A DNA stretch of 64,000 nt from NCBI GenBank assembly GCA_021791195.1, contig JAJYXB010000008.1:10921-74920 (forward strand), in the 5' to 3' direction. The position numbers and the translations under genes were made by a program. Below the pieces are notes generated by a model. That model searched no databases. It was not told where the DNA came from and was given only the letters and a program-made list of their open reading frames with translations. Shown one piece after another: positions 8,108 to 57,671 of this stretch. The number at the start of each line of letters is the position of its first letter. Position 1 is the stretch's first letter. The stretch comes from Actinomycetes bacterium (GTDB lineage Bacteria; Actinomycetota; Thermoleophilia; BMS3ABIN01).

Positions 8108-8584
8108 CTATTTTTCGCCGCGCTCGATGGCGATGCGGCCGGTCCGCACGATCTCGGCCACGTTCGGCTTCAGCAGCAGCTCCAGCGCCTCGATCTTTTC
8201 CGCCGTGCCGGTGATCTCGATCGTCATCGTCTTGCGGCTGACGTCCAGGATCTTCGCCCGGAAAATCTCGGCGATCTGCATCACCTCACCGCGGCTTCTG
8301 GCGTCGGATTTCACCTTGATCAGCGCCAGCTCCCGCGCCACGGTGTTGTCCGGATCGAGGTCGGTGATCTTGATGACGTTGATCAGTTTGTGCAGCTGCT
8401 TGGTCACCTGCTCGATCGGATGCTCGGCGGCGTTGACGGTGATCGTCATCCGCGAGACGTCGGGGTTCTCGGTGACGCCGACGGCGAGGCTGTCGATGTT
8501 GAACCCGCGGCGTGAGAACAGGCCCGCGATCCGGGCCAGGACGCCGGGCTTGTTTTCCACCATGACTGACAGCGTGTGTTTCAA
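8108..8584 (-). CDS. ilvH: Acetolactate synthase small (regulatory) subunit
   Basis: (M)[29 protein letters not shown] is an ACT-domain IlvH N-terminus. Probable TTG start at 8584 overlapping the ilvB stop (TTGA). The alternative ATG is at 8563. Confidence 0.85.
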   Translation of the reverse strand: MKHTLSVMVENKPGVLARIAGLFSRRGFNIDSLAVGVTENPDVSRMTITVNAAEHPIEQVTKQLHKLINVIKITDLDPDNTVARELALIKVKSDARSRGEVMQIAEIFRAKILDVSRKTMTIEITGTAEKIEALELLLKPNVAEIVRTGRIAIERGEK

Positions 8585-11927: not shown

Positions 11928-12123
11928 AGCTCCATCCTTCCAGCCAGCTATTTCACTACAGAAACCCGCGGCAGGGCGGGCAAGCCAATATATTAACACA
12001 CGGCTCTCAAAAATCCTTGCCAAACCGGCTGCGAAGCGGAAACACAAAAACCGGATGTGGCCAAAACCGCCAGCAAACTATAGGATATAAGAATGAATGC
12101 CCGCCCGCCGCGGGCCAACTGAC

Positions 12124-14970
<2,847 letters not shown>

Positions 14971-18313: not shown

Positions 18314-18459
18314 GAACGGGAATTCCCGGGGGAAAGATCGACTTGCGGAGTAAATTCAGATACGCCGGACGGACTGGCCGCCGGTGAGAAAAACGCTCCC
18401 CTGACAAAAAATGGTGCCTGAAACAAGTATAGCAAACCCGCGGCGCTCGCCGGCGGGCG

Positions 18460-26266: not shown

Positions 26267-26941
26267 CTACGGCTCATATCCGGGCAGGAAGACCCAGAGG
26301 TCTTTTGTTATGAGCCACTGGCTATTATCTAACTCCAGGGTGACCGTATGCTGCTCCGCGTTGCTACCACCGCCTTCATCACGATTATTATTGTAATCCA
26401 TATAGTAGGTTTCGCTATATATATCTACGACCACGGTTGCTTTATCGCCCTGGACTGAGATCCCCTTATAATCCATCTTTGTGATTGTGCTTTCGGATCT
26501 GCCCACGCCGGCTGCGGCCGATTGCATTTCCACGTCGATGGTGTGCTGTCTCTTTTGTAATTCGCCAGAGGCAGCACTAAAATACCTGTTAAGATTATCC
26601 TTTAATTCCTGACTACGGCCTCGATTCTCATATAGCAACGTATCTCTCTCCGCTTGAAAAGCATCATGGACGACTTGCATTAGTTGCTCCCAGGTCTTTG
26701 GATCACCCGCCCATTCACGATCGCTCGGGTCATATTTTGGGGGCGCCTCAGCCAGAATGTTGGCAGTATCTTTTCGCCCCTCGACTGTAAAAGTCTGACC
26801 ATTTTTTTTAACTGTAAATACTTTAATATTTTGCTGATATGTGTCGCTGGCAGCGCTGTCTGCATGGTGAATTAAAAAAAGCGTCAAGGCCAAAGCTCCT
26901 GCCAAAAATGTCGCTATTAGTGCAATTATTATTTTTCTCAT
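26267..26941 (-). CDS. Hypothetical exported protein (signal-anchor) within the lower-GC insert
   Basis: 224-aa ORF with an N-terminal hydrophobic signal and AT-rich codon usage unlike the host genes. Confidence 0.5.
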   Translation of the reverse strand: MRKIIIALIATFLAGALALTLFLIHHADSAASDTYQQNIKVFTVKKNGQTFTVEGRKDTANILAEAPPKYDPSDREWAGDPKTWEQLMQVVHDAFQAERDTLLYENRGRSQELKDNLNRYFSAASGELQKRQHTIDVEMQSAAAGVGRSESTITKMDYKGISVQGDKATVVVDIYSETYYMDYNNNRDEGGGSNAEQHTVTLELDNSQWLITKDLWVFLPGYEP

Positions 26942-26958
26942 CTATTTTCCTGGCGGAT

Positions 26959-27192
26959 TCAAGTCTGAAGTGCAACGGTTAACATGGTTGACGTTTTGAA
27001 TAATACTTCATACGGAGTTTTGAATCCAAGCTTTTTCCTAGGCCTATGATTCAATCGATGCTCGGCCTCGGCGATCTCGTCGTTGGTGATAGTGGTAAAG
27101 TCGTGCTTCTTGGGGGAGTATTGCCGGATGAGCCCGTTGGTGTTCTCGTTTAGACCCCGCTCCCAGGAAGAGTAGGGATGGGCAAGATGCAC
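26959..27192 (-). mobile_element. IS30-family transposase C-terminal remnant (truncated pseudogene)
   Basis: HPYSSWERGLNENTNGLIRQY...RPRKKLGFKTPYEV matches the IS30 integrase-core C-terminus. The DDE core and N-terminus are absent. Confidence 0.7.
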
Positions 27193-36156: not shown

Positions 36157-36426
36157 TTAGCCCTCGATCTTCAGCTCCATGTCGGGAATCGCTGATGCGA
36201 TCCGCTTTAGTTGGTCCGCGCTGAAGCCGTTACCGTAAAGTCCCATGAAAATCTTCCCCTTCAGCTGCGCTGCGGTGATTCCCGGGTCTTGCCTCCTGAT
36301 GCCGATCTCCATCAGTTGCTTGGCCGTCTCGAACATGTCGCTGGCCATCTGAAGGCGCTCGGCGGGAGTGCGCTCGGTAAACATTGAGAGCCACAACTTC
36401 TCTACGGCGGGTGGGGTGTCACGCAT
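36157..36426 (-). CDS. Hypothetical 89-aa protein, partner of the upstream nucleotidyltransferase-fold gene
   Basis: Overlaps the upstream gene by 8 nt. Lower GC. No recognised domain. Confidence 0.4.
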   Translation of the reverse strand: MRDTPPAVEKLWLSMFTERTPAERLQMASDMFETAKQLMEIGIRRQDPGITAAQLKGKIFMGLYGNGFSADQLKRIASAIPDMELKIEG

Positions 36427-36970
36427 TCTGCTGAGCCTTCCTTAACAAACCATCCACTTCGAGCCGTTTGGCCCATTCATGGAGGTAATCGTAGTCGAGC
36501 TTTTCGTGGGCTTTCAGAATCTGCTCGACATACCTCATCTGAAATTCCGGTTCGGAGTCCTTTGCCCAAACAAGCTTGGACAGAATAAGGTCTTCCGCCG
36601 CGACGACCGTAACCGGGACATCGCCCATCTCGATTCGCTGTCTGCGCGAGAACTCCCTCAGCCGGTAATCCTCGTCCTTTCTCACGATGAAATCGAATTT
36701 GACCGCCGATTCGGTGTGAATGATGTTGAACATGTCATGTCGCGCAATCGCTTCCCGCACGGCATGTTCATCGATGTAGAAGTCTTCCTTAAAAATTCTT
36801 ACGAGTTTGTCAACTAGTTCGGAAGAAATGTGAAGCACCATGTCGATGTCCCTCGTCATCCTGGGGGCCGAGTAAAGTGACATTGCAATGGAGCCGGTGA
36901 GCATATAATCGATGCCCGCTTCGTCGAGTCTGGACGTTACAACTTTTAGCAGATCGAACTCGGTGGTCAT
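36419..36970 (-). CDS. Nucleotidyltransferase-fold protein (minimal NTase/Lnu-like: GS...DIDMV)
   Basis: DYMLTGSIAMSLYSAPRMTRDIDMVL matches the Pol-beta superfamily hG[GS]...DxD signature. 183 aa. Its start overlaps the stop of the truncated HEPN ORF. Confidence 0.5.
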   Translation of the reverse strand: MTTEFDLLKVVTSRLDEAGIDYMLTGSIAMSLYSAPRMTRDIDMVLHISSELVDKLVRIFKEDFYIDEHAVREAIARHDMFNIIHTESAVKFDFIVRKDEDYRLREFSRRQRIEMGDVPVTVVAAEDLILSKLVWAKDSEPEFQMRYVEQILKAHEKLDYDYLHEWAKRLEVDGLLRKAQQNA

Positions 36971-37182
36971 GGCTTAATGCTTGGTCGGATCAGTCCCGCT
37001 GCCTGAGCTCCTCCAGAAACCTTGCTTGCGGCCTCACCGATAATCTCAATGGATTTAATGAGCGAAAGTGTCAACTTTCGGTCCGCGTCGAGATCGCTTC
37101 TTGTCTTGCCAGATATAAATGAAACAGCCTCGCGGGCTGAATCGAGCATGTGGCGAAGGCGAATGATATCGTCAGGCAGCAT
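36967..37182 (-). pseudogene. Truncated HepT-like HEPN (DUF86) toxin gene lacking the C-terminal Rx4-6H motif
   Basis: IIRLRHMLDSAREAVSF...LSLIKSIEIIGEAASKV matches the N-terminal two-thirds of DUF86. The ORF ends exactly where the 183-aa gene starts. Confidence 0.5.
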
Positions 37183-37480
37183 ACTGAACTTCAGCCTCAG
37201 CGATGACGTCATCGCGAAAATAACGACTCAGATCCTCGGGTGTGCGCAGATCCGCTTTTCTGCCCAGCATTTCGGAAAGCTCCCGCTCCATGCGGGCGAG
37301 ACGGATAAAACCCGGAACATGACCTGGCTCGAACTCGACCAGCACATCGATATCGCTGTCGGGCCGGAAGTCGCTTCGCAAAACAGATCCAAAGAAGGCG
37401 AACTTGCGGATATGATTGCTGCGGCAAAAGTCGGCAATCTTTGACTTGGGAATTTCGATCTTTGGCTTCATCGATGTCAT
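37172..37480 (-). CDS. MntA-like minimal nucleotidyltransferase (antitoxin-type)
   Basis: [24 protein letters not shown] is the classic MNT motif. The ORF is open to 37696 with a GC-rich 72-aa N-terminal extension of unclear status. Confidence 0.6.
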
Positions 37481-37734
37481 TTCATTATCAGCACAAAAGC
37501 GGTGGCCACATTGATGGGTCTCGTTGTAAGCGGGGCTCTTGTAGGCGGCTTCGTTGTTGCGGAAGTTTTCCACCAGCTCGGCGATGCGGGCGCGGGTTTC
37601 GGCGGGCACTGCCAGACGCGGCGTTTCCTCGGGCGCATTTGGCGCGGCTTGCCGCGCTCCCGTAGACGCATCCATAGCTTGGCCGTCAGTTGACATGAAG
37701 CAATTATATCACCAGGCGCGGACGGGCTCGGGAA

Positions 37735-38355
37735 TTATTGCTTCCTTTTTGCCGGCGCCTGCTTCTCGGGAGCGCGCTTCTTCTTTGCCGGCGCCTCGGG
37801 ATTCCAGTGAAATCCGATCTGATTCTTCTTCGGCTTCGGGGGTTCCATCAGTTGGCGGATGGCTTCGAAGACGACGCGGAATTGGGCATCGTATTTCTTC
37901 TCCAGCGAGTCGAGTTTGCGGGCCAGATCTGCGTGCGAGTAGGAAATCCTTTTCAGGCTGACAAATGCTCTCATGATTTCGATATTGACGCTAATTGCCC
38001 GCTTGCTCCTGAGAACACTCGAAAGCATCGCAACACCTTGTTCGGTGAAAGCGTAAGGCAGATACTTAGCATGCCGGCCGCGCTGGGAATCACCCGGTAA
38101 ACCCGTGGCGGTGGATGAGAGGTTTTCTGACGCAAAGAAGCTTTTGGCCTTTAATGCCGTTAATTCCGCCTTTAATAGCTGGAACATGAAATCATCCGGA
38201 AACCTCTCAATGTTCCGTTTGACAGCCTGGATCAATACCCGATGTTCGACTTCATAGAGCCGGGCCAGGTCATCGCTCAACATTACCTTGTTTCCACGTA
38301 GAACAACGATCTTTTTTTCAACGACTTCTTCCGAAACAATTGCAATTTCTTTCAC
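37735..38355 (-). CDS. ORF6N (KilA-N-like) domain DNA-binding protein
   Basis: [42 protein letters not shown]...[15 protein letters not shown] matches the ORF6N domain. GTG start with GGGAGG Shine-Dalgarno. Lys-rich tail. Confidence 0.75.
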
Positions 38356-44977: not shown

Positions 44978-46201
44978 TCAGATGGCCATCAGCCGGACGA
45001 ACTCTTCCTGGAAAAACCGGTTCAGCGGCAGCGCCACATGCCGCGTCCGGCCGCGGATCTCCTCCAGCGCGGCGTGGCTCCGGGAGCCCAGCATCATCAC
45101 CGCTCCCTGGCAGGCAGCGTCGCCCACCACCTCGACACGGTCATCCGGAAGATCGGGGAACATGTTCAGCTGGCGGGCGTTTTCCAGGTTGATATAGCTT
45201 CCGAATGTGCCTGTAATCAGCATCCGCGACAGCGCCTCGGTGCCGAGTTTCTGCCTCAGCACCGAGATGGCCGCGTGCACCGATGCCTTCACCAGCTGGA
45301 AAGAGCGGATGTCGTGCTGGCTGATCGTGATCGGCTGATCGCCGCCGGCGATCACCACCGGCCCCTCCTCGAGCAGCCGGCCGCTGGCGTCCACCCGCCC
45401 GTGTCTTCTGAGTTCAGCGATGATGTCAATCAGTCCCGAACCGCAGATGCCACGCGGTTCTCCGCCGCCGACGACCTCGAAATCAAAACCGCTGCCCGCA
45501 AGCCTGGCCTTGTAGATCGCACCGGCGCTGGCCGACTGGCCGAATGACATGTGTGAATCCTCGTACGCGGGCCCCGCCGGACTGGAGGCGACCAGGACCC
45601 GCTCGCGGTTGCCCAGCGCCATCTCGCAGTTGGTGCCCACGTCCACGATCAGCTCCGGCGCCTCGCTGCCGGACATGCCGATCAGCAGGATATCAGCCAG
45701 CGCATCCGATCCCACAAAACCAAATATCGGCCTGGGCACAAACAGATTGACATCGGGCAGCGCCGCGTCCAGATCGTTCGCGGAACCGAAAAAATCACGC
45801 GCCCCCTTGAGATTGTAGGGCGTGCCGCACAGCGGCTCCGGATCGAGATCCAGCAGGAAAGCATACATGGCCGAGTTGCCGACGCAGGCCACCTCCGCGA
45901 TGTCAGCGTCAGTGATGCCCGCGTCGCGGCACAGCCGCCCGATCGAATCGCCGACGGCGCCGACCGCCTGCTGGTGCAGCGCGGCCCTGATTTCGGCGCT
46001 GCCGGCTGCCAGTCCCAGGCGACTGGCGATGTCAGCCCCGTGCTGCCGTTGCGGATTCGGAAACACCAGGGTATCGACCACCCGCGCATCGTCAAGATCG
46101 ACCAGGCGTGACCAGACGCTGGATGTGCCCAGGTCGATGGCAATCCCGTACCGCGCGCCCACTTCGGGCCTGCCGGCACCGGCTCTGCGTGTGCTATCCA
46201 C
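44978..46201 (-). CDS. ASKHA-fold ATPase-like protein (DUF4445/RACo C-terminal-domain-like) without an Fe-S domain
   Basis: N-terminal YGIAIDLGTSSV phosphate-1 motif in a 407-aa protein. The family assignment is tentative. Confidence 0.55.
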   Translation of the reverse strand: MDSTRRAGAGRPEVGARYGIAIDLGTSSVWSRLVDLDDARVVDTLVFPNPQRQHGADIASRLGLAAGSAEIRAALHQQAVGAVGDSIGRLCRDAGITDADIAEVACVGNSAMYAFLLDLDPEPLCGTPYNLKGARDFFGSANDLDAALPDVNLFVPRPIFGFVGSDALADILLIGMSGSEAPELIVDVGTNCEMALGNRERVLVASSPAGPAYEDSHMSFGQSASAGAIYKARLAGSGFDFEVVGGGEPRGICGSGLIDIIAELRRHGRVDASGRLLEEGPVVIAGGDQPITISQHDIRSFQLVKASVHAAISVLRQKLGTEALSRMLITGTFGSYINLENARQLNMFPDLPDDRVEVVGDAACQGAVMMLGSRSHAALEEIRGRTRHVALPLNRFFQEEFVRLMAI

Positions 46202-46628
46202 GGCGCCGGCCTCCGGCGCCCGCGGCGCCTGTTATTTTCTGCTCAAGCAATCGTGCTCCCTGGAGGTTTCCCGCCGCCAGCGGGAGAATCGACTCGTACT
46301 TGTACTCGCACAGGATACTTTACAGGAAATCGGCAAATCACACGTATATCCCGGCTCGCGAACATGAAAAATCTCCTCCGGACGCCGGGTCGCCGCCCAT
46401 CCTCGCTCTCCGCGCTGCGCCCCCGCGATATTTCGCCGATTTCCCTTTAAATGCAATGGAAACGGCTGTATTTCTCTGTTAGAATTTATGTGCGAGCATG
46501 GTTGCAGGGCGCTGGGAATGATCATTGGCAACCTGCGCACTTTAGCCTCTTCGCACTCCACACAACTAGGGAATTTAAGACTCGCGGGACCGCCTGTTCC
46601 GAAGGGGAGATTGCAAGGCTTGAAATCG

Positions 46629-48098
46629 ATGGTCATATTGCCGTCGTGGAAACCGGACGACATCTATCCGTCCAAAATAGCCAGCTCGGCGATCAGCTAC
46701 CAGCATCCACTGGGACCCCTCTATATCGCCACTTGCATCCAGGAAGCCGGCCATGAGGTCGAGCTGGTGGACGGCGCCTTCTGGACTCACGGTGAGATCC
46801 TCGACAAGGTGCGCCGACTCCGTCCGGGGTTTGTCGGCCTGTCCGCCAATGCCTCGATGTGGACAAAAGCGATGAAAGCGGCCGCCGGCATCAAGGCGAT
46901 CGACCCTTCCATCCACGTCAGCGCCGCCGGGCCCTATCCCTCCGCCGTGCAGGAAAAATCCCTCGAGCAGTGCCCCGAGCTGGATTCGATCGTCATCGGC
47001 GAAGGAGAGCTGACGGTTCCCGAGCTGATCGCGCGCCTGGAGCAGGGCGAGAGCCTGACGGGAGTCGCCGGAGTCGCCTTCCGGGCCGCCGACGGCACGA
47101 TCACGGTGAACGAACCCCGGCCGCTGATCGAGGACCTCGACATCATCCCTATCCCGCGGCGCGAGCTGCTGGGCGATTTTGACAAGTACGAGTCGCCGCC
47201 GGGAAATTACCGGCGCAAGCCGATTGCCATCGTCATGACTTCGCGCGGCTGCCCGGCCCGGTGCATCTACTGCTTCCAGATGAAAGGCGAACGCCGCATC
47301 CGCTATCGCAGCGTCGACAACGTCGTCCGCGAGGTCGAAGAGCTGGTCAACCACTACGGTTTCCGGGAGATCAGGTTCCTGGATGAGACCTTCACCGCTG
47401 ACCGCGAGCGCGCCATGGAACTGCTGCGGCGCTTCCGGGAGCTAAGGCTCGACTTCAGTTTCTTTGTCTCATCGCGTGTCAACACGGTTGACTATGAGCT
47501 GCTGCGTGAGATGAAGAAAGCGGGCTGCTGGGCTATCCTCTTCGGCGCGGAGAGCGGCGTGCAGAAGAACCTCAACACGCTGCGCAAAGGAGTCAAGCTG
47601 GAGCAGACGCGCACCGCCGTGGCGGCGGCCAAGAAGGCCGGCCTCAAGGTGACCACGCCGTTCATCATCGGCATCCCCGGGGAGACTTACGAAGAGGCGC
47701 TGGAAACAGTGGAGTTCGCCGTCCGGCTCGATCCGCACGTGGCCAACTTCCACACAATGGCTCCTTTCCCGGGGACGGAGCTCTACGATCACATTGAGAA
47801 ATATGGCACCATGTCATCAAACACGGATGATTACACTTTCGAAGGCGGAGCGTTCGTGCCCCACTCGATGACCCGCGAAGAGATCGAGCGGGTGCGCACC
47901 ATCGCCTTCCGGCGTTTTTATTCCCGCCCCGGCTTCATCCTCAGGCGCCTGCTGGCCGTCCGCAGCCTTTATGACCTGAAAACAGTGACAAAAGGGGCGC
48001 GCAGCTTCTTCTGGCTGTGGGCCAGGGGAGACACGCTCAGCATGAAACGGCCGGAGCCACGCAGCCAGGGAAACAAGGCCGGAAACCGCAGCGGATGA
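46629..48098 (+). CDS. B12-binding-domain radical SAM enzyme (class B)
   Basis: N-terminal cobalamin-binding Rossmann region, then the radical SAM CxxxCxxC (SRGCPARCIYC). The ORF opens at 46488. MVILPSW at 46629 is the likely start. Confidence 0.85.
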   Translation: MVILPSWKPDDIYPSKIASSAISYQHPLGPLYIATCIQEAGHEVELVDGAFWTHGEILDKVRRLRPGFVGLSANASMWTKAMKAAAGIKAIDPSIHVSAAGPYPSAVQEKSLEQCPELDSIVIGEGELTVPELIARLEQGESLTGVAGVAFRAADGTITVNEPRPLIEDLDIIPIPRRELLGDFDKYESPPGNYRRKPIAIVMTSRGCPARCIYCFQMKGERRIRYRSVDNVVREVEELVNHYGFREIRFLDETFTADRERAMELLRRFRELRLDFSFFVSSRVNTVDYELLREMKKAGCWAILFGAESGVQKNLNTLRKGVKLEQTRTAVAAAKKAGLKVTTPFIIGIPGETYEEALETVEFAVRLDPHVANFHTMAPFPGTELYDHIEKYGTMSSNTDDYTFEGGAFVPHSMTREEIERVRTIAFRRFYSRPGFILRRLLAVRSLYDLKTVTKGARSFFWLWARGDTLSMKRPEPRSQGNKAGNRSG

Positions 48099-49138
48099 AC
48101 GACTCTCCCAAATCCACGCCGGCGGTATCGGTTGTCATCCCGGTTTATAATGGCGCTGAAACTATCCGTCACGCGCTGAAAGCGGTGCATGAATCGACCT
48201 TCCGGGACTTCGAGATAGTCGTAGTCAATGACGGCTCGACGGACAACACCATGGATGTGCTGTCGGAGTGCGCCGGGCCCTATCCCTACAAGCTGGTGGC
48301 GCTCGACCACAACACCGGCGTCTCCCACGCGCGCAACGCCGGCGCCGCAGCGGCCAGCGGCCGCATTCTCCTCTTCATCGATGCGGACTGCGTGGTCATG
48401 CCGCCGACGATACAGCGCTGCGTCGAGCGCCTCACGCAGAGCGATTGCATCTGCGTCGGCGGCGCGTATACCAGCGCCGCTTCCTTCGACAAGGATTTCT
48501 TCAGCCAATTCCAGTCGCTTTACATCCATTACGTGGAGACCAAGAACCAGTTCCCCGACTACATCGCCACCCATTGCATGGCCATGCGCAAGGATGACTT
48601 TGAGGGCTACGGCGGGTTCATCGAGGATTCTTTCATCGGCCATCAGGCCAGCGTCGAAGATGTGGAGTTCTCCCACCGGATGCTCCGCGCCGGTCACTGC
48701 CTGACGCGGCCCGCTGATATCCAGGTGATGCACATCTTCCGCTTCACATTCGCCAAGTCCATCAGGAACGCCATCAAGAAGAGCAAGTACTGGACGATGT
48801 ATTCGCTGCACAACAGGGATGTGATGAAGGACTCGGGTGCCGCCTCCTATGAACTCAAGATCGATGTCGTCACCCAGACATTAAATCTGGCGCTGGTGAT
48901 CGTGGCGGTGGCCACGCGCTTCTGGTGGCTGCTGCTGCCGGTACCGGTCCTGTTTGCGCTGAACATTGGCACGAGCTACGGGCTGCTGCGCCTGTTCAAG
49001 CGCGAGCGCGGCTGGGGTTTTTTCCTGGTCGCGACGGGATACTACCAGTTCGTCTATCCGGCCGGCGTGGCCTACGGCTCCCTGATTGGCACGCTAAAAT
49101 ACATCTGGGAAGTGAAAATCCTGCGCCGATACCGGTAA
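48095..49138 (+). CDS. Family-2 glycosyltransferase with C-terminal TM helices
   Basis: VSVVIPVYNG...VVNDGSTDNT...DAD GT-A motifs. ATG overlaps the upstream stop (ATGA). Confidence 0.85.
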   Translation: MNDSPKSTPAVSVVIPVYNGAETIRHALKAVHESTFRDFEIVVVNDGSTDNTMDVLSECAGPYPYKLVALDHNTGVSHARNAGAAAASGRILLFIDADCVVMPPTIQRCVERLTQSDCICVGGAYTSAASFDKDFFSQFQSLYIHYVETKNQFPDYIATHCMAMRKDDFEGYGGFIEDSFIGHQASVEDVEFSHRMLRAGHCLTRPADIQVMHIFRFTFAKSIRNAIKKSKYWTMYSLHNRDVMKDSGAASYELKIDVVTQTLNLALVIVAVATRFWWLLLPVPVLFALNIGTSYGLLRLFKRERGWGFFLVATGYYQFVYPAGVAYGSLIGTLKYIWEVKILRRYR

Positions 49139-49201
49139 ACTTGGTAACGGCACCATTTTTTGCATGGCCTTCGGGCTCGTGCCAAACCAACTGACTCGCT
49201 C

Positions 49202-50314
49202 ATGTACTCACCCATCAGGCATATCCCGCAGGTTTTTCTCAAGAACCGGCCGCTGCAGTTTACATTATTTGTAACCGCGCGCTGCAACTCTCGCTGCCCC
49301 TTCTGTTTCTACTGGCAGAACCGCCATGCTCCCCGCCAGGAGCTGACCCTGGACGAGATCGAGCAGGTGGCGCGCTCCATGGACAGCCTGCTCTGGCTGC
49401 TGTTCTCCGGCGGCGAGATCTTCATGCGCCAGGATCTGCCCGAGATAGTCGAGTGCTTCTACCGCCACACGCACCCGGTAATCATCACCCTGCCCACCAA
49501 CGGACTCGCGCCGGGGCTGATCATCCCCAAGATGGAGAGGATTCTGGCAGCTACGCCGGAAAGCGCTGTCGTGGTGAAGGTATCGCTCGACGGCATCGGC
49601 GATGAGCACGACAGGCTGCGCAACACGCCCGGCAGTTTTGAAAAGGCGATGGAGACCTGGACAGGGCTGGAGCGCCTGGGGCGGCGGCACCAGAACCTGC
49701 AGATCGGCATCAATACGGTATTCTGCCGCGAGAATCAGAACCGGATGGACGAGATCATCGATTATGTCAACGTCCTCCCCGGCTGCGAGACGCACACCAT
49801 CTCGCTGGTGCGTGGCGACCCCGCCGATGCCGGCGCCAAGGACGTCGACCTGGAAAAGTATCGCCGCGCCATCGAACGGCTCGAGACCGACTTGAAAGGG
49901 TCGCGGCCCAAGATGTACCATTTTAACCTGGCGCGGCTGAAATCCGCCCAGGACCTGGTGCAGCGGCGCCTGATTTACGAGACTGTGCGGCAGGGCCGGC
50001 GGCAGCTTCCGTGCTATGCCGGCCGGCTGGCCGCCGTCATGAATGAAGAGGGGGACGTCTTTCCGTGTGAGATTCTCACCGAGACTTTCGGCAACGTACG
50101 CGCAGCCGGATATGACCTCATGCGGGTTTTCCGGTCGGAAGCAGCAGACCGGATCAGGGCGGGTATAAATCAATCGGGCTGCTACTGCTCACACGAATGC
50201 TATTTCGTCACAAATATCCTGTTCAATCCCAGGGTGTATCCGCGGGTCCTGAAGCAGCTGCTGGACCTGAGGCAGACCCGGCAGCCGGCCACCGGGAAGG
50301 ACGCAGTCCGGTGA
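49202..50314 (+). CDS. Radical SAM protein with C-terminal SPASM/twitch-like Cys cluster
   Basis: CNSRCPFC (Cx3Cx2C) plus C-terminal CYAG...C...CYCSHEC cysteines. Confidence 0.8.
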   Translation: MYSPIRHIPQVFLKNRPLQFTLFVTARCNSRCPFCFYWQNRHAPRQELTLDEIEQVARSMDSLLWLLFSGGEIFMRQDLPEIVECFYRHTHPVIITLPTNGLAPGLIIPKMERILAATPESAVVVKVSLDGIGDEHDRLRNTPGSFEKAMETWTGLERLGRRHQNLQIGINTVFCRENQNRMDEIIDYVNVLPGCETHTISLVRGDPADAGAKDVDLEKYRRAIERLETDLKGSRPKMYHFNLARLKSAQDLVQRRLIYETVRQGRRQLPCYAGRLAAVMNEEGDVFPCEILTETFGNVRAAGYDLMRVFRSEAADRIRAGINQSGCYCSHECYFVTNILFNPRVYPRVLKQLLDLRQTRQPATGKDAVR

Positions 50315-52071
50315 CCGCCGGCGGATCGGGCCTGACGCCGGCGGTGGCGCAGCCAGAGCGCGACTTTGCCCCGCGTATGGCATCGCCGGCCCGCACGCGG
50401 GCGCGATCCCCGCGGCTGGCACTGCTGGTGAGCCTGGGGTGCGTGCTTGCTTTCGTGCTGCTGATCACGCTGCCGTTCATCGGCCAGGCACTGCATCTGG
50501 ACGATTTCCTCTTCTGGGACTTCGCCCGCAACAACCTCGATCACCCGCTGCAGCAGCACCTGTCCGGCTTCCATCTGATGGGCCAGAATGTGGCCAGCTT
50601 CCGCGATACGCATCCGCCGGTCGACGAACTGTATCTGTCGCTGATCATGCGCGTGACCGGCTCCACCGATTCCGCGGTGGCGATGCACCTCGGCTTCATC
50701 ATTTTCCCGCTCATCACCGGCCTGTCGATGTTCTTCCTGTCCCGCCGCTTTATTCGCAGCGCGCTGCTGGCGACGATCATGCTGCTGGCCACGCCGGCAG
50801 TGATGGTGATGTCGCACAACCTCATGGGCGACCTGCCGATGACCGCTTTCTGGCTGGCCGCGACGGCGCTCTACATCTACGGCGCCGACCGCGGCGACTC
50901 CCGGCTGCTCGCAGCGGCGGGCCTGGCGGCGACGCTGGCGATCTTCACCGGCTACCAGGCGCTGGCGCTGATCGTGCTGCTGCCTTTCTACAGCTGGCTG
51001 ACCGGGCGGCTTTCCCTCAAAACGCTGCTGCCGCTGGCGCTGCCGGTGATCAGTTTTGGCCTCTTCAGCTGGTACAACCTGGCGGTATATGACGCCCTGC
51101 CCAGGTTTTCGCACGCTCAGGGCCTCAGCTTAAGGGGCGCCGACATCTTCACCCGGCTGAAGGGCCTGCTCGCGGGGACAGGCGGCGCGACGGTTTTCCC
51201 GCCGGCGATGGCCGCACTCTTTGCCCTGCGCCGGAAAAGATATCTGCTGCTGCCGGTGGTGGCCGCGGGCGCGGTGGCGCTGACGCTTTATCAGCGCGAC
51301 ACCATTGCCTTCCCGGTCCCGACGGCGATCCTGTTCGCCGTCTTCGTCACCGCGGCGGCGATGGTCCTGCTGATGATAACCACAGAAGCAGCGGTCCAGG
51401 TGCGCCGCCGGCTGCGGCATCGGGAAACCGACCGCGACTTCCTCTTCCTCGCCGGCTGGATCGTAACGATCGCGGGCGCGATCTGCCTGCTGCTGCCGGA
51501 GGCCAGCGCCAAGTACTACCTGCCGTTCCTGGCGCCGGTGGTCCTGCTGATGTTCCGCGAAGCTGAGGCGGTGATCAGGCCGGCGTTCACGCTGCGGGCT
51601 ATCGTCATCGCCGCCATCGCCGGCACGCTGATCACCGGCCTGGCGCTGTCGGCAGCTGATTATCAGCTGGCCAAGGCTTACAAGGATTATGCCCGGAGCA
51701 TCAGCGCCCGCGCCCAGACCGGCGGCACCGTGTGGTTTGTGGGCGAGTGGGGCTTCCGTCACTACATGGAGGCCCAGGGATACAAATACCTCACCACCGC
51801 TGACACGTCTCCGGCCAACGGGGACCTGGTGGTCAAGGCGGGGTTGATGGACTGGCCGCTGGATCCTTCGGTGACCAGCCGCATGCGGCTGGTGTCGGAC
51901 ACGACTACTGAATGGGATTTCCCGGTGCGTTCGATGAACTTCGCCAGCAGCGCCGGCTTCTACGGCAGCTTCTGGGGCCTGCTGCCCTTTTCCATCACGG
52001 ATCAGCCCCTGGAGCACTTCCAGATCTACCGGCTGGAACCAGCCCCGCAGGCCGGCACGCCCCAGCCCTAG
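50311..52071 (+). CDS. Polytopic membrane glycosyltransferase, GT-C fold (GT39/83 ArnT/PMT-like)
   Basis: At least 10 TM helices and a C-terminal soluble domain. GTG start overlaps the upstream TGA (GTGA). An ATG alternative is at 50380. Confidence 0.65.
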   Translation: MTAGGSGLTPAVAQPERDFAPRMASPARTRARSPRLALLVSLGCVLAFVLLITLPFIGQALHLDDFLFWDFARNNLDHPLQQHLSGFHLMGQNVASFRDTHPPVDELYLSLIMRVTGSTDSAVAMHLGFIIFPLITGLSMFFLSRRFIRSALLATIMLLATPAVMVMSHNLMGDLPMTAFWLAATALYIYGADRGDSRLLAAAGLAATLAIFTGYQALALIVLLPFYSWLTGRLSLKTLLPLALPVISFGLFSWYNLAVYDALPRFSHAQGLSLRGADIFTRLKGLLAGTGGATVFPPAMAALFALRRKRYLLLPVVAAGAVALTLYQRDTIAFPVPTAILFAVFVTAAAMVLLMITTEAAVQVRRRLRHRETDRDFLFLAGWIVTIAGAICLLLPEASAKYYLPFLAPVVLLMFREAEAVIRPAFTLRAIVIAAIAGTLITGLALSAADYQLAKAYKDYARSISARAQTGGTVWFVGEWGFRHYMEAQGYKYLTTADTSPANGDLVVKAGLMDWPLDPSVTSRMRLVSDTTTEWDFPVRSMNFASSAGFYGSFWGLLPFSITDQPLEHFQIYRLEPAPQAGTPQP

Positions 52072-53489
52072 CGGAACACGCGCCTGGCAGCGTGCACGTA
52101 TTCGCGCAGCGCCCACCACGAATTCAGCTTTCTCAGGTGCCGGGCGATGATGCGCGGCCTGAAGTAAAAGCGGCGGTATGCCCGGCGCGTCGCCTGAAAC
52201 AGCTCCTCGCTGGACAGGTTCTGATGGCGGTAAACCGGCTCGCCCATGATGTCATAACGCCACCAGTCTTCCGTCAGCAGAAGACCGGCGGCGCGGAACT
52301 TCTCCCATTCATCCGTCCCGGGGAACGGCACCATCATCCCAAAGCCGGCGCTGTCCAGATCCAGCTGGCGGGCAAAGTCGATCGTCTGCTCGACCGTCTC
52401 TGGCGTTTCTTCCATGAAGCCAAAAAGGAAGTAACCATGAGGCGAGATGCCGGCGCGGCGGGTGTTGCCGACCGCCGTGGCTATCTTCTCCCTGGTGGTC
52501 TTCTTGATCTTCTTAAGCAGCTCGGGGTTGCCGACCTCGATGCCAAACTGCATCTGCCAGCAGCCGGCTTTTTTTGCCCACGTCAGCATCTCCGGATCTA
52601 CCTCGCTGGCGCGGCTGTTGCAGGTCCAGGCGATGTCGAGGCTGCGCTCCTGGATCAGGCTGCACATCTCCCGCAAACGGTTGCGGCCGCAGATCATCGA
52701 CGGATCACGGAACGAGAACGAAGTCACCCCGAAAGCGCTGTTCAGCCATGACAGTTCATCGACCACATTGCGGGCGCTGCGCAGACGGTAACGCTTGCCC
52801 TGTTGCGTGGTGACATCGCAGAAGGAACAACCGTAGGGGCAGCCACGGCCGCTGACGATGGAGGAAAAATTCCCCTTCTTGCCCCAGTTGAGGAAAGGGT
52901 TGTAGAAAGACGGTTCCGGCAGCAGATCATGAGCCGGGAATGGCAGGGAGTCGAGGTCTTCCAGGGCCTGCCTGGGAGCCGTCGCTCTGACCTCGCCGCC
53001 CTGGCCGAGAACCAGCCCCGGGATCCGGCCCAGGTCGCCCCCGGTAACCACCGCGTCGCATACCTCGGCCGCCGGCAGCTCGCCCTCGCCGATCACGGCC
53101 ACGTCCACGTCAGGGCTGGCAGCCGCCTGCGCCGGCAACGCCGTGACGTGGGGACCGCCCACGACAGTGAGGATGTTCTCATCGACGCTCTTGGCCAGTG
53201 CCGCCAGCGCCTCAGCGTCGTGCCACTGCGGCGTCAGCGCCGAGATGCCCACCACCCGGGGGTTGAAACTCTCGATGCGCTCGCGGATCCTGGCGGCCGG
53301 CGTCCCCAGCGAATAGCCGTCGACTACCTGGACTTCGTGACCCGCCGCGCGCACCGCTGCCGCCACATAGGCCAGCCCCAGCGGCTGGGTGGTGTTCCAC
53401 GGCCGCTCGACCGCGCCTTTAAACAGCCCGCGAGGCGGGGTGAACAATAAGACTTTGCAGCCCTTGTCTGCGTTGCCGCTCAACCGCAC
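52068..53489 (-). CDS. B12-binding-domain radical SAM enzyme (second copy, convergent)
   Basis: B12-binding N-terminal domain plus SGRGCPYGCSFC. Its 3' end overlaps the GT-C gene's 3' end by 4 nt. Confidence 0.85.
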   Translation of the reverse strand: MRLSGNADKGCKVLLFTPPRGLFKGAVERPWNTTQPLGLAYVAAAVRAAGHEVQVVDGYSLGTPAARIRERIESFNPRVVGISALTPQWHDAEALAALAKSVDENILTVVGGPHVTALPAQAAASPDVDVAVIGEGELPAAEVCDAVVTGGDLGRIPGLVLGQGGEVRATAPRQALEDLDSLPFPAHDLLPEPSFYNPFLNWGKKGNFSSIVSGRGCPYGCSFCDVTTQQGKRYRLRSARNVVDELSWLNSAFGVTSFSFRDPSMICGRNRLREMCSLIQERSLDIAWTCNSRASEVDPEMLTWAKKAGCWQMQFGIEVGNPELLKKIKKTTREKIATAVGNTRRAGISPHGYFLFGFMEETPETVEQTIDFARQLDLDSAGFGMMVPFPGTDEWEKFRAAGLLLTEDWWRYDIMGEPVYRHQNLSSEELFQATRRAYRRFYFRPRIIARHLRKLNSWWALREYVHAARRVFR

Positions 53490-53734
53490 CCTCCCCTGGA
53501 TGTGCCTGTTTCCCGCCTCACTTGCGCGCCTTGCCGCCGAACGGCGGATTCTCCCCCGGCGCCAGCGGTTCGCCGGTACACTGACCGCCAGCAGACGACG
53601 ATTCGTTACGGGAATCTAAATCTTCACCGGCAACCCTGGCCGGAGAAGATGTTGAAGGATACCTGAGCCGGCTGAACGCCAGCGTTCGTTTTCTAACCGA
53701 ACTTACATGATGAGTTTAAAGAAAATCAGGCCGG

Positions 53735-54406
53735 CTAGCAACCGGTTTCGCCGCCAGAACCGGGCAGGTGCTTGCCGCCCAGCAGCTCCCGGCAGATCGC
53801 CAGCGTGCCCTTGACGTCGCTGGCGAAGGCATCGACGCCCACCTCCTGGGCCAGCTCCTCGGAGTGGGCGGCGCCGCCGGAGACAACCTTGACGCGGTCG
53901 CGCAGGCCGGCCGCTTCAAGAGCGCTGAGGACATCGACCAGCGCCTGCCTGGTCGAGGTAGTGAACGCCGAAAGCAACAGCAGATCGGCATCGACCTCCT
54001 TCACCCTGGCGACGAATTTGTCGGCGGAGACGTTGACGCCGAGGTCGTGCACCTCATATCCGGAAGCCCTGAGCGCGGAGATGATGATGTCCTTGCCGAT
54101 GTTGTGGATGTCTCCCCTGACCGTGCCCATGACGACGACGCCGGCGTACTCCTGCCGGCGCTCGAACAGATAGGGATCAAGCACCTGCAGCGCCCGCTCC
54201 ACGGCAGCGGCCGAGCGCAGCATCTCGGGAATGAAATATTCGCCGGTTTCATACTTGCCGCCAACTTCCTCCATGGCGGCGGAGAGGCTGGCGATGACTT
54301 CGTCCGCGGACGCCTTGCCCTCGCTGGCGATGCCAGCGGCGATACCCGCGGCGCCGTCCGCGTCACCGGCGATCACCGCCTGTCTGAAATCTTCAAGCAG
54401 AGCCAT
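53735..54406 (-). CDS. Cobalamin-binding corrinoid protein (MtaC/MtbC-like; DxHxxG)
   Basis: B12-binding_2 helical cap plus a Rossmann domain with GDIHNIGKDI. Confidence 0.8.
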   Translation of the reverse strand: MALLEDFRQAVIAGDADGAAGIAAGIASEGKASADEVIASLSAAMEEVGGKYETGEYFIPEMLRSAAAVERALQVLDPYLFERRQEYAGVVVMGTVRGDIHNIGKDIIISALRASGYEVHDLGVNVSADKFVARVKEVDADLLLLSAFTTSTRQALVDVLSALEAAGLRDRVKVVSGGAAHSEELAQEVGVDAFASDVKGTLAICRELLGGKHLPGSGGETGC

Positions 54407-55425
54407 TATGCATCCCCGCCCTGGTATTTTCCGTAGCGGCGGCCGCTGGCAACCAGTGCGGCCAGATTTTCCTCCGGAGCGCTCAGCGGGACCGAATCTC
54501 CCGTACTGAGAATAAACTTTCCCCCCCTGGCGGCGTCAATCGCCGCGCTTACGGCAGCGTCGACATCGGCAGCCGTTCCCTTTTCGATAACCGAAACGGC
54601 GTCAATGTTTCCCTTGAGCACCACGGCGTCGCCGGCCGCCTCCCGCGCCTGCCTTAAGTCCACCGGCGAATCGATCTCCAGGACGGCCGCGCCGGTGGCG
54701 GCCATCAGCGGCAGGATGGGCAGGCTGTTGCGGCAGACATGCAGGATCACCGGGATCCCCTCCAGGCCGGCCACCGCCTCCCGCTCGGCCGGATAGGCGA
54801 ATTCGCGGTAGTGGTCGGGCGAGATCATGCTGGTGGAAGCAAACGAGTCCTTCACTACCACGGCGTCGACGCCAGCTTCGGCCAGCGCCCGTCCCACCGC
54901 CAGAGTCGCCGGCAGGCAGGCTGCGATCAGGTCACGCACCAGTTCCGGGTCACGGTAAAAATCGCCCATGAAATCAAGCAGGCCGCGGACGGTGGCGGCG
55001 TACTCGAACGGCGACCGCACCGCCCCGAGGATGACGCTGTCGCCACCGGCAAGAGCCACCAGCCGCTCGACCGGCTCCATCTTGCCGCCGGACCAGGGAT
55101 CGGGGACGGTGATCTTTTCCAGATCGGCCCGGGTCTCGACCAGCCGGTCCGTCACCAGCGGCACCTCATTGCCCTCGATCTGCACCGGGCAGCCGAGCAC
55201 TTCCGGCGCCGGCCCCAGGCCCATCTCGGCCACCACCCCATCCATGCCGAAACGCTCCAGCGCCAGCGCCAGGGCGCCGGCCAGGCAGTCGTTGTCCTGC
55301 CAGCATTCGTCGCTGGGACGCCCGGTCAGCCCGGGCGCGAAAAAGCCGTCGACGACCGGGATGACGGGGACCATATCGGGGATCTCGCCTGCCAGCACGG
55401 CCTGAAAGCGCTCACGGGAGTTCAT
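54406..55425 (-). CDS. URO-D/MtaA-family methylcobalamin methyltransferase
   Basis: Uroporphyrinogen-decarboxylase-like fold typical of MtaA/MtbA/CmuA. The start/stop pair overlaps the corrinoid gene (ATGA). Confidence 0.75.
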   Translation of the reverse strand: MNSRERFQAVLAGEIPDMVPVIPVVDGFFAPGLTGRPSDECWQDNDCLAGALALALERFGMDGVVAEMGLGPAPEVLGCPVQIEGNEVPLVTDRLVETRADLEKITVPDPWSGGKMEPVERLVALAGGDSVILGAVRSPFEYAATVRGLLDFMGDFYRDPELVRDLIAACLPATLAVGRALAEAGVDAVVVKDSFASTSMISPDHYREFAYPAEREAVAGLEGIPVILHVCRNSLPILPLMAATGAAVLEIDSPVDLRQAREAAGDAVVLKGNIDAVSVIEKGTAADVDAAVSAAIDAARGGKFILSTGDSVPLSAPEENLAALVASGRRYGKYQGGDA

Positions 55426-55846: not shown

Positions 55847-56941
55847 CTATTGCTGCCCTTGCAGATCCTGCAAGCTCAGGTCTTTTCCAATGATAACAGT
55901 GATTTGTTTATTTGACATCGATTCGTCCTTGATCACGTTTCCCTTTCCCAGCAGGTTGCGCACCTGGTTCCCCTGATCGATGGCGTCGCTGCCGCAGCGG
56001 ATCTGGGTGGTGTCGTAGCCCACATTCGACTGATCCGACGCCGGCGCGAGCCGGAACCGGAGCGGCGCCAGCCTGGCGGTGACGGCGCCGGCGACCGCCG
56101 GGTCCACGCCGCCATTGCGGATCTCGAGAGTGTAGCCGGCGTTGAGCGGCGAGCCGGAGATGAGCGCCGCCAGCTCGTCCGGCACCGGTTCGAAATACCA
56201 GTCCTGCCCGCCGCCAGCCGCGCGCACCGGCAGCGGCCAGACCCCGGCGGCGGCGCCGGGGTCGGTGATGCCCGCAAACAGGTCAACAAAGTCCTCAGCA
56301 CTCATATCCGACTGAATCCGTTGATAGACCTGGCGCGCGAAGTTCCGCCGGTCGGACTCGGGGCGGGCGCTGAGAGCGCCGCGCAGGCCCTGATAAAACA
56401 GGGCCTGCACCTGGCTGCCAACCTGGGGGTCATTGACAGAATTCTTCAGGTATGACATCGCCTTGTCCGGACCGGTGGGATTGTCGCCGGCCGCCAGACT
56501 GACCGAGCCGTCGGCGCTGGCCAGGGCGCCGGCGGCCTTGAAGTCGATCGAACCCGCCTGTTCGGCCATGATCTGCACGGCGTTGTAATCGAAATAGACA
56601 TGGAAGCGCAGCGGCACCCGCAGCAGGTTGGCAACGGTCTGGTCCAGCAGTTGCTGCCCGCCGAGCTGGATGACCCGATCCAGCCGCTGAAACCCGTGGC
56701 CGGGCGTGTCGGCCAGGGTGCGTCCGGGGATGGTGTAAATGCTGTAGCCGCCCCCGGCGCCGCCAACCACCACCAGGACCTGGCTGAGATTCCCGGCGTC
56801 ATCCTTGCCCACCATGATGACGTTGCGGTCGCCTGCGGTCGCGGTCGCAGGCGCCGCTTCCGGCGCCCCCCGCGAACGTTCCAGCGCGAAGACAGCCGCG
56901 AACACGGTGGCCGAGGCCAGCGCACCCGCCAGCAGGATCAC
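55847..56941 (-). CDS. LytR-CpsA-Psr (LCP) family cell-envelope phosphotransferase
   Basis: LCP domain after an N-terminal TM helix. The ORF is open to 57205 (overlapping nadD by 134 nt), so the start is uncertain. A GTG at 56941 is one option. Confidence 0.65.
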   Translation of the reverse strand: MILLAGALASATVFAAVFALERSRGAPEAAPATATAGDRNVIMVGKDDAGNLSQVLVVVGGAGGGYSIYTIPGRTLADTPGHGFQRLDRVIQLGGQQLLDQTVANLLRVPLRFHVYFDYNAVQIMAEQAGSIDFKAAGALASADGSVSLAAGDNPTGPDKAMSYLKNSVNDPQVGSQVQALFYQGLRGALSARPESDRRNFARQVYQRIQSDMSAEDFVDLFAGITDPGAAAGVWPLPVRAAGGGQDWYFEPVPDELAALISGSPLNAGYTLEIRNGGVDPAVAGAVTARLAPLRFRLAPASDQSNVGYDTTQIRCGSDAIDQGNQVRNLLGKGNVIKDESMSNKQITVIIGKDLSLQDLQGQQ

Positions 56942-57071
56942 GAAGGTCAGGCGACGGCGGCGGGCCCGGCGGTGCGCCGCCAGCCGCTGCCGCCGGGTGC
57001 CGGAGCGGCTCAGCAGATCACCGCCATAACCTGAACGGGAGTAGCCCCTGGTGGAGCGCCTGTAACGCCGC

Positions 57072-57671
57072 TTAGGTTTTACGGTACAACCCTTTCTCCT
57101 GGATAAACTGCCGCACACCCTCGAGCACCAGGTAACGGATGGATTTGCCCTCAGCCACGCGGTTCCTGATAAGTGTCGAGGAAACGCCGATCCCCGGAAT
57201 TTCAATGATCTTCACGCGGTTTTCCCGGAGAAAGACGTCAAGTGCACCTGATATTTTATCAAGCGGATAGCCCGGCCGCGTAGCCGCGATCAGCGTCGCC
57301 ATCGTCAGCAGTTCCTGGGGGTCCTTCCACTCCAGGATCTCCAGCACGGCGTCGGCGCCGGTGATGAAATAAAGCTCGGCGTCAGGCATCTCCCGGCGGA
57401 AGTGCCGGATCGTATTGACCGTATAACTGACCTGCCTGCGGTCGATCTCGAAGCGGGACACCTCGAAGCGGGGATTGCCCTCGGTGGCGATGGTGCACAT
57501 CCGGAACCGGTGTTCGGAGCTGGCGCCTTCGAGGATCTCCTTGTGCGGCGGGAAGCCGGTAGGCATGAACAGCGCCTTGTCAAGCCGGTACCGGGAGACC
57601 GCCTCTTCAGCGCACACCAGGTGACCGATGTGGATCGGATTGAAGGTGCCGCCCATGATGGCGAGTTTCAT
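57072..57671 (-). CDS. nadD: Nicotinate-nucleotide adenylyltransferase
   Basis: MGGTFNPIHIGHL is the H/TxGH nucleotidyltransferase motif. Confidence 0.9.
   Translation of the reverse strand: MKLAIMGGTFNPIHIGHLVCAEEAVSRYRLDKALFMPTGFPPHKEILEGASSEHRFRMCTIATEGNPRFEVSRFEIDRRQVSYTVNTIRHFRREMPDAELYFITGADAVLEILEWKDPQELLTMATLIAATRPGYPLDKISGALDVFLRENRVKIIEIPGIGVSSTLIRNRVAEGKSIRYLVLEGVRQFIQEKGLYRKT

Follow-up and report, generated by a model that had tools for sequence, protein, structure and literature searches.

A widespread radical SAM and glycosyltransferase triad in an actinobacterial gene cluster with a possible role in cell-envelope glycoconjugate tailoring

In three-component glycosylation, represented by ArnC/ArnD/ArnEF/ArnT, GtrA/GtrB/GtrC and the polyprenyl-phosphate pentofuranose systems (PMC11127046), a membrane glycosyltransferase of family 2 (GT2) adjoins a GT-C enzyme. 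These systems provide a precedent for modification of a lipid-linked sugar in the cytoplasm before its transfer, namely the ArnD deformylase and the epimerisation by DprE1/E2. The hopanoid side-chain enzymes HpnH/HpnI/HpnJ (with HpnK) and the archaeal calditol synthase Cds pair a radical S-adenosylmethionine (SAM) enzyme with a GT2 and a radical SAM enzyme carrying a B12 domain, and rearrangement of a lipid-bound hexose by a radical SAM enzyme is the paradigm there (PMC13459092). Corrinoid-dependent methyl transfer is carried out by MtaABC with RamA, by O-demethylases, which consist of methyltransferase I (MT I), a corrinoid protein, MT II and an activator, and with RACo in the acetyl-CoA pathway. 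Radical SAM enzymes also modify sugars; AprD4, GenK and other class B methylases have a B12 domain, BlsE, DesII and BtrN are twitch or related enzymes, and all of these have soluble aminoglycoside or nucleoside sugars as substrates, in pathways to antibiotics. Here we describe a gene cluster that has likeness to each of these systems. It lies at 44978-55425 of a 64,000-nucleotide stretch of DNA (the window) from an uncultured Actinomycetes bacterium of the subsurface (assembly GCA_021791195.1, contig JAJYXB010000008.1) and encodes a GT2, a GT-C, three radical SAM enzymes and three proteins of corrinoid systems.

We read this cluster, with a probability of about 0.5, as a pathway of cell-envelope glycoconjugate tailoring that is built around an uncharacterised, widespread triad of the GT2, a radical SAM enzyme (rSAM) and a B12-binding radical SAM enzyme (B12-rSAM#1). 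In Actinomycetota, Nitrospirota, Proteobacteria and several archaeal lineages the members of the triad have stayed 50-60% identical, and conservation of this degree points to a specific, as yet unseen product. Anaerobes and subsurface microbes probably carry it on the cell surface or as part of a membrane lipid, in the form of a sugar modified by radical chemistry. Family membership was tested by Pfam scans and by NCBIfam models with curated cut-offs. None of the cluster proteins reached an NCBIfam cut-off, the triad and its connection with a corrinoid system were found in no curated model and in no paper, and literature searches likewise gave no description of the cluster. Thus, the set is coherent but unassigned, as an earlier note made from the sequence alone had described it.

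Genes and enzymes of the cluster

Open reading frame (ORF) listing, frame analysis by GC content at third codon positions and Pfam scans showed that the cluster is real and consists of eight co-located genes, instead of the ten counted in the earlier note; the domain calls of that note were borne out by Pfam, with the qualification that the SPASM hit itself is sub-threshold. Four genes form a run on the plus strand, encoding B12-rSAM#1 (46620-48098), the GT2 (48095-49138, 347 aa), the rSAM (49202-50314, 370 aa) and the GT-C (50311-52071, 586 aa). A gene for a truncated RACo-like ASKHA ATPase (44978-46201, minus strand, 407 aa) is divergent from this run. Three genes on the minus strand converge on it and encode a second, accessory B12-binding radical SAM enzyme (B12-rSAM#2, 52068-53489), a corrinoid methyl-carrier protein (53735-54406, 223 aa) and a methyltransferase of the MtaA/URO-D family (54406-55425, 339 aa). 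Stop and start codons overlap at the junctions of B12-rSAM#1 and GT2 (ATGA, 48095-48098) and of rSAM and GT-C (GTGA, 50311-50314), as had been noted earlier; the overlap also claimed between GT2 and rSAM does not exist, since these genes are 63 nt apart. The convergent stops of GT-C and B12-rSAM#2 have CTAG (52068-52071) in common, which is the 4-nt shared 3' end recognised before, and a 1-nt overlap (TAATG) joins the MtaA-like gene to the corrinoid gene. The overlapping codons and a conserved promoter-like site (see below) agree with the earlier proposal of one operon, and the plus-strand run looks like a single operon.

The rSAM is the most conserved member of the cluster. Its invariant cysteines are C28/C32/C35, C271-x12-G-x4-C289 and C327-x-C329-x3-C333, and it has the C-terminal CX9-15GX4C motif and further cysteines for one or more auxiliary clusters that are the hallmark of SPASM/twitch enzymes. 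However, it scores 20.1 bits against Pfam SPASM, below the threshold of 21.5, and just five C-terminal cysteines are invariant; it is therefore best regarded as a probable twitch or partial-SPASM enzyme. Of the earlier description as SPASM-type, the C-terminal cysteine motif stands and the full domain does not. The radical SAM core begins at around residue 20, the predicted model has a predicted local distance difference test (pLDDT) score of 82, and neither the family alignment nor the model contains a peptide-recognition (RRE) domain or an N-terminal peptide-binding extension.

The absence of such a domain from the rSAM bears on the idea of a ribosomally synthesised and post-translationally modified peptide (RiPP) or a mycofactocin-like system, in which the rSAM would mature a small peptide and the GT2 would glycosylate it. 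MftF and MftC are among the weak NCBIfam hits of the GT2 (87.8 bits) and the rSAM (57.7 bits), but both are far under their cut-offs of 280 and 265 bits. The leader contains no small ORF that is conserved among the clade loci compared, and dozens of contexts that have the GT2-rSAM pair lack any gene for a peptide or chaperone, most relatives having this pair only. Thus, a peptide system is hardly credible, and the earlier opinion that the leader has no precursor ORF and that a RiPP is unlikely is upheld.

Both B12-binding enzymes have an N-terminal B12-binding domain (PF02310) and a CX3CX2C radical SAM core, which are the hallmarks of class B enzymes. B12-rSAM#1, with the motif CPARCIYC, matches Pfam B12-binding at 64.6 bits and Radical_SAM at 97.4 bits, and in the PDB it matches AprD4, a sugar diol-dehydratase, best (92.6 bits), followed by the methylase MgmA (9ccb, 73 bits). 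The match to AprD4 counts for the sugar pathway proposed below; AprD4 is not known to require cobalamin. B12-rSAM#2 gives 92 bits with B12-binding and 74.5 bits with Radical_SAM and is 33% identical to B12-rSAM#1. The GT2 (Glycos_transf_2, 112 bits) also carries Glyco_tranf_2_3 and Glyco_transf_21 signatures. Its GT-A domain, in which the DAD motif lies, is followed by an amphipathic helix and by two hydrophobic, probably transmembrane, helices at the C-terminus; D46, D96-x-D98 and E188-D189 are invariant in the family alignment. When its profile was compared with the PDB, the matches covered the generic N-terminal half only.

The combination of an rSAM, a GT2 and a B12-binding radical SAM enzyme had been compared in the earlier note to the logic of hpnJ/hpnI/hpnH, and a pathway for a membrane-lipid head group of the hopanoid or calditol type has to be considered. 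In such a pathway the GT2 would glycosylate a lipid alcohol, as HpnI does, the rSAM and/or B12-rSAM#1 would make a carbocyclic or rearranged polyol, and the GT-C would be separate or act later. Ring contraction of a lipid-bound hexose by a radical SAM enzyme is the accepted proposal for HpnJ and Cds (PMC13459092), which counts for this pathway. HpnJ (TIGR03471) is indeed the top NCBIfam hit of both B12-binding enzymes, but the scores are 231.4 bits for B12-rSAM#1 and 188.3 bits for the accessory B12-rSAM#2 against a cut-off of 577.6; because the two score similarly, this likeness is generic. The GT2, with its two signatures and membrane helices, would suit glycosylation of a lipid, but it scores 24.5 bits against HpnI (TIGR03472), whose cut-off is 310, and HpnH (TIGR03470) does not appear in the top 25 NCBIfam hits of the rSAM, which extend down to E = 2.7e-10. 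All Hpn models are thus far under their cut-offs and the hopanoid comparison does not hold as family membership. The genes shc, hpnG and hpnK are also missing among the annotated genes of the 64-kb window, as had been noted for squalene-hopene cyclase. Bacteria as well as Archaea have the triad, in many cases with no GT-C in the neighbourhood, which speaks for a lipid pathway; on the other hand, hopanoid synthesis is not known in Archaea, and a GT-C recurs beside the GT2-rSAM pair in three arrangements, where a pure head-group pathway needs none. We consider a head-group pathway unlikely. Assignments of the cluster to hopanoid, mycofactocin, ladderane, Tes, PhpK and BchE systems were rejected because the NCBIfam scores were far under the cut-offs.

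The GT-C matches Pfam PMT_2 at 42 bits. Its AlphaFold2 model (pLDDT 89) has a C-terminal beta-rich extracytoplasmic domain, and the top Foldseek matches of the model were ArnT, which was the best, AglB, ALG12, OST and AftD; PMT was also matched. D64-D65, in the first extracytoplasmic loop, is invariant, showing that the acidic motif of GT-C enzymes is present. These structural relatives (ArnT, AglB/OST, ALG12, AftD and PMT) all use polyprenyl-phosphate-linked donors. The predicted fold therefore points to a lipid-linked sugar, as had been suggested from the presence of a GT-C.

The promoter-like site lies on the plus strand at 46457-46485 (TGGAAA-17-TAGAAT, with TG preceding the -10 element) and was found independently by a consensus scan. 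The motif GTGGAA-N18-TAnACT is kept in 16 clade loci. In the divergent intergenic region (46202-46628 in the window; clade loci L007, L009 and L019-L036) an upstream block, GTAGCAGAAAA, accompanies the promoter-like site. A G-rich block, GGGGTGnGGGG, is located about 10 nt past the -10 element in clade loci, with a divergent copy in the window. It pairs with a downstream CTCCCC followed by a U-run in L007/L034 and L029, resembling a terminator; in most loci the pairing of this block with the pyrimidine tract is no better than in shuffled sequences, and RNAalifold gave no consensus structure for the leader. A riboswitch in the leader was rejected because the whole window has no Rfam match at gathering score and 46100-46750 has none at E<=1. 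A codon 9 nt upstream of ATG 46629 varies between ATG, GTG and TTG in 16 relatives and has a GGAG about 10 nt before it. Because of this variation and the properly spaced GGAG, B12-rSAM#1 probably starts at TTG 46620 (MKSMVILPSW...) rather than at ATG 46629. With this start, the divergent regulatory region and leader span 46202-46619 and the leader is 418 nt long, not 427 nt as given before.

Conservation within and beyond the clade

About 18 GTDB species of one actinobacterial clade have retained the whole set, and the identical locus is present in the metagenome-assembled genomes GCA_027392895.1, GCA_023488545.1 and GCA_027392815.1, which are labelled Actinomycetota, Thermoleophilia or Gaiellales. 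RACo-like proteins of the clade, encoded at the same position, are 65-74% identical and B12-rSAM#1 is 74-81% identical. The plus- and minus-strand halves are co-conserved in relatives, and this includes a second genomic context (L098, described below). The entire block occupies one fixed chromosomal slot, from lepB to rsfS. Within the block, the slot between the GT-C and corrinoid genes (52068-53734 in the window; L018-L036) is variable and contains from zero to three B12-rSAM genes of two types. B12-rSAM#2 is absent in L009/L032 and L029, L025 has three B12-rSAM copies, and in L018, L021, L023, L024, L027 and L031 a third type, 31-34% identical to both enzymes of the window, replaces or joins B12-rSAM#2. 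This variation suggests that B12-rSAM#2 is an accessory tailoring enzyme.

Homologues of the GT-C with at least 45% identity are restricted to the clade, and those with 37% identity or less are in unrelated contexts. The GT-C was therefore dropped as the anchor for wider conservation and the rSAM was used instead, in a scan of one genome per GTDB species. The rSAM family is large and tight, a search at E<=1e-10 giving 1510 hits, and 360 GTDB species were found to have relatives; the best 80 loci were examined, 62 of which are outside the clade. Members that are 50-57% identical to the rSAM occur in Nitrospirota (including Thermodesulfovibrionales), Gamma- and Betaproteobacteria, and Archaea (including Hydrothermarchaeota and Methanobacteriota). 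Directly upstream of the rSAM, 58 of the 62 non-clade loci have a GT2 orthologue (37-46% identical), and the stop and start codons of the two genes often overlap. Within 10 kb, 17 of the 62 loci have a B12-rSAM#1 orthologue (50-58% identical), in many cases convergent and directly downstream.

Unbiased clustering of neighbouring ORFs revealed an extended set that recurs in 9-12 non-clade loci. It comprises a flavoprotein of the PRK07208 family (NF005548, above cut-off), a universal stress protein, a YedE/TsuA-like membrane protein, a rhodanese and a distinct GT-C. The loci that carry it belong to Proteobacteria, Nitrospirota and Archaea and also have the B12-rSAM#1 orthologue (L053, L059, L060, L066, L072, L075, L077, L080, L081, L086, L087, L090 and L097). 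By tblastn, the window contains no homologue of the flavoprotein, the YedE-like protein, the rhodanese, the universal stress protein or the other GT-C. Because the genes of the extended set have no counterpart in the window, the ancient unit appears to be GT2 and rSAM, often with B12-rSAM#1. A GT-C of a different subfamily flanks the GT2-rSAM pair in 11 of the 62 non-clade loci, and its hhalign match to the GT-C of the window (93%) is confined to the N-terminal module. Judged from these sequences, non-orthologous GT-Cs have been recruited to the core more than once. The ArnT-like GT-C, the variable B12-rSAM slot and the trio of corrinoid protein, MtaA-like enzyme and truncated RACo-like protein are specific to the clade.

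The extended set brings sulfur and selenium into view. If the product were a thio- or seleno-sugar, the rSAM would insert S or Se by means of its auxiliary cluster, and the MtaA-like enzyme, of the zinc type, would methylate the thiol or selenol together with the corrinoid protein. The YedE/TsuA-like homologue of S/Se transporters and the rhodanese, which repeatedly flank the pair in other phyla, are consistent with this, but many of the organisms with the extended cluster take part in sulfur cycling, so that these neighbours may reflect lifestyle, and no sulfur-transport or sulfur-carrier gene was found in the cluster of the window. A gene resembling 3'-phosphoadenosine 5'-phosphosulfate (PAPS) reductase adjoins the MtaA-like gene in L098. 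In addition, thiols are methylated by MtaA-type enzymes, and the MtaA-like protein retains the H-x-C ligands. Homologous MtaA-like corrinoid clusters of non-methanogens, which count in the same direction, have been tied to methyl-sulfur and methyl-selenide metabolism, with no mention of radical SAM enzymes or glycosyltransferases (PMC10418091). Taken together, a thio- or seleno-sugar is very improbable.

The corrinoid trio and its surroundings

The earlier note had placed a corrinoid protein with a DxHxxG motif and a methyltransferase of the MtaA/UroD type on the same strand as B12-rSAM#2, and both were found as described. The corrinoid protein, with the motif DIHNIG, matches Pfam B12-binding_2 (53.7 bits) and B12-binding (76.2 bits) and scores 152 against TIGR02370, whose cut-off is 215. 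The MtaA-like protein matches URO-D at 187 bits and TIGR01463 at 150.7 against a cut-off of 235.4, and its best PDB match is MtaA (4ay7). In its putative zinc site, H-x-C is kept and the third cysteine is replaced by an invariant aspartate in G-D-S. The RACo-like protein matches RACo_C_ter at 195 bits and Raco_middle at 115 bits; its score against AcsV is 198 bits, with a cut-off of 800. Its alignment with the RACo structure 3zyy (631 aa) is limited to residues 207-615 of the latter; the N-terminal [2Fe-2S] domain and the linker are hence absent. The Fe-S domain is also absent in its relatives (395-407 aa). It is a putative corrinoid reductive-activation or chaperone protein.

Homologues of the MtaA-like protein form a clade-restricted subfamily, nearly all of them coming from the clade; the addition is L098, with 51% identity. 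A metagenome scan with the MtaA alignment, which used low-specificity patterns, gave, among the matches listed, a single locus of the clade and three loci with distant MtaA-like genes but no triad. L098 is a contig of 12 kb (1-12103, 51% GC) on which MtaA-like and corrinoid genes converge on B12-rSAM, GT2 and rSAM genes, as in the window. Identities to the proteins of the window are 51% for the MtaA-like protein, 46% for the corrinoid protein, 52% for B12-rSAM, 48% for GT2 and 52% for rSAM. A winged-helix protein takes the place of the GT-C, and the neighbours include a polysaccharide deacetylase, a SAM methyltransferase, a Wzx-like flippase (Polysacc_synt), the PAPS-reductase-like protein and a CWB2 wall-binding protein. 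The triad of L098 is closest to archaeal versions (B12-rSAM 66% identical to L060; rSAM 60-61% to L086 and L073) and only about 53% identical to that of the clade. Since it is nearer to the archaeal versions than to the clade, its association with MtaA-like and corrinoid genes does not look like inherited synteny. The recurrence of the same convergent layout in this unrelated context argues for reading the corrinoid module and the glycosyltransferase/rSAM operon as one functional unit.

It is possible but unlikely that two unrelated neighbours meet here, an ordinary methylotrophy or O-demethylase module of an anaerobe (RACo-like, corrinoid and MtaA-like proteins) being located beside a glycan cluster. 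In clade genomes 24 nt separate rsfS from the MtaA-like gene behind it, within a long string of housekeeping genes that share one direction, and a terminator-like hairpin comes after the corrinoid gene; but corrinoid-system genes bracket the glycosyltransferase/rSAM operon in the window, with the RACo-like gene on one side and the MtaA-like and corrinoid genes on the other. The triad is without corrinoid genes in all 62 non-clade GTDB loci, which fits independent modules, but the MtaA subfamily is essentially limited to genomes with the cluster, and in L098 the same MtaA/corrinoid subfamily converges on the triad of another lineage. A catabolic system would also need a second methyltransferase, which is missing, and the activator is without its Fe-S domain. 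The class B methylases studied so far take the methyl group from SAM and need no corrinoid protein, which again favours unrelated modules.

A closer coupling can also be imagined, in which the corrinoid trio would be a dedicated service line for the B12-rSAMs, bringing methyl groups or reduced or methylated cobalamin from a one-carbon pool other than SAM for C-methylation of the lipid-linked sugar. This is improbable. If true, class B radical SAM chemistry would here be supplied by a corrinoid-protein relay for the first time, within a sugar-modification triad of Bacteria and Archaea that had not been recognised. The recurrent presence of a corrinoid system beside B12-rSAMs makes it testable how such enzymes obtain or recycle methyl-cobalamin in vivo.

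The cluster is surrounded by housekeeping genes. The left flank contains pdxS, an IMPDH-like gene, rpiR, a TIM-barrel gene of the sugar-phosphate-isomerase type and lepB, and the right flank contains rsfS, the gene for a LytR-CpsA-Psr (LCP) protein, nadD, proA, proB, a murA-like gene and ATP synthase genes. The remaining window is also core chromosome, with lon, serA, ilv genes, secDF, tgt, queA, ruvB and yebC. Two genes upstream of the MtaA-like gene, the LCP gene (55847-57205) is flanked by nadD and rsfS. Enzymes of this type join polyprenyl-linked glycopolymers to the wall; the position of the gene, however, belongs to a conserved housekeeping string in all relatives and thus gives no sign of a link to the cluster. 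A low-GC islet at 36157-38355 (about 54% vs 63% elsewhere), between yebC and the pdxT/pdxS region, contains small genes that by sequence motifs look like a toxin-antitoxin pair of the nucleotidyltransferase/HEPN type and an ORF6N-domain protein, and it is probably a small mobile or defence insert. A second low-GC stretch (26267-27192) is found between a gene for a caspase-like C14 peptidase and queA. On its minus strand, a 77-aa ORF (26959-27192) resembles a C-terminal remnant of an IS30-type transposase, and beside it 26267-26941 encodes a 224-aa membrane-anchored protein. The regions 12097-14970 and 16346-18355 encode a hybrid histidine kinase with receiver and GGDEF domains and a HAMP-GGDEF protein, which are unrelated to the cluster.

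Proposed pathway and comparison with known systems

In glycoconjugate tailoring as we propose it, the GT2 would load a sugar on a membrane lipid carrier, most likely polyprenyl phosphate, at the cytoplasmic face of the membrane. The translationally coupled rSAM, of the twitch type, and B12-rSAM#1 would then remodel the lipid-linked sugar by radical chemistry, which may be C-methylation or a redox reaction, dehydration or ring change. In the clade, one to three extra B12-rSAMs would add further modifications, probably C-methylations. The GT-C would move the finished sugar from the lipid carrier onto an acceptor outside the membrane. The corrinoid protein, the MtaA-like enzyme and the truncated RACo-like ATPase may form a non-radical cobalamin methyl-transfer system of the same pathway, and most plausibly this system would methylate or demethylate a heteroatom of the same sugar or of the acceptor. 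Identification of the product would give envelope glycobiology a new reaction type and possibly a new biomarker.

Several observations weigh against this proposal. In most GT2-rSAM loci a GT-C is missing from the surrounding 7-10 kb, and corrinoid genes accompany the pair in none of the loci outside the clade and L098. The GT2 has an architecture that fits a polyprenyl-phosphate glycosyltransferase, but in profile comparison, where the matches cover the N-terminal half, DPMS, GtrB and ArnC score no better than soluble GT2s, so that a lipid phosphate is a putative acceptor only. No ORF for a small flippase (GtrA, ArnE/F) or Wzx was found at 44978-55425, and no second corrinoid methyltransferase of the MtaB, MttB, MtvB, MtrH or MeTr type is present in or next to the cluster. 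Since the block is in one fixed slot, its conservation in the clade counts as a single evolutionary event, and L098, a single 12-kb contig, is the sole independent second context.

Compared with HpnH/HpnI/HpnJ and Cds, the cluster has the same pairing of rSAM, GT2 and B12-domain radical SAM enzyme. Unlike the Hpn systems, it fails the three Hpn hidden Markov models, has no cyclase, HpnG or HpnK in the window and contains a GT-C, and its triad also occurs in Archaea and Nitrospirota. The sugar-modifying radical SAM enzymes (AprD4, GenK, other class B methylases, BlsE, DesII and BtrN) are only 11-20% identical to the enzymes of the cluster, and they are not in conserved chromosomal clusters with membrane glycosyltransferases. 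The cluster resembles three-component glycosylation in that a membrane GT2 accompanies a GT-C whose model is most similar to ArnT. It differs from those systems in having a GT2 that is not a detectable relative of GtrB, ArnC or DPMS, in having no flippase gene and in the attached corrinoid methyltransferase system; its tailoring enzymes are an rSAM and a B12-rSAM, and we found no described three-component system using these in the literature. Finally, it is similar to the corrinoid systems in its capped corrinoid protein with DxHxxG, its URO-D/MtaA fold with H-x-C and its ASKHA activator homologous to RACo. It differs from them in having one methyltransferase, an activator without the Fe-S domain, an aspartate as the third zinc ligand and proteins that fall below the NCBIfam subfamily cut-offs, and its partners are glycosyltransferases and radical SAM enzymes instead of catabolic genes.

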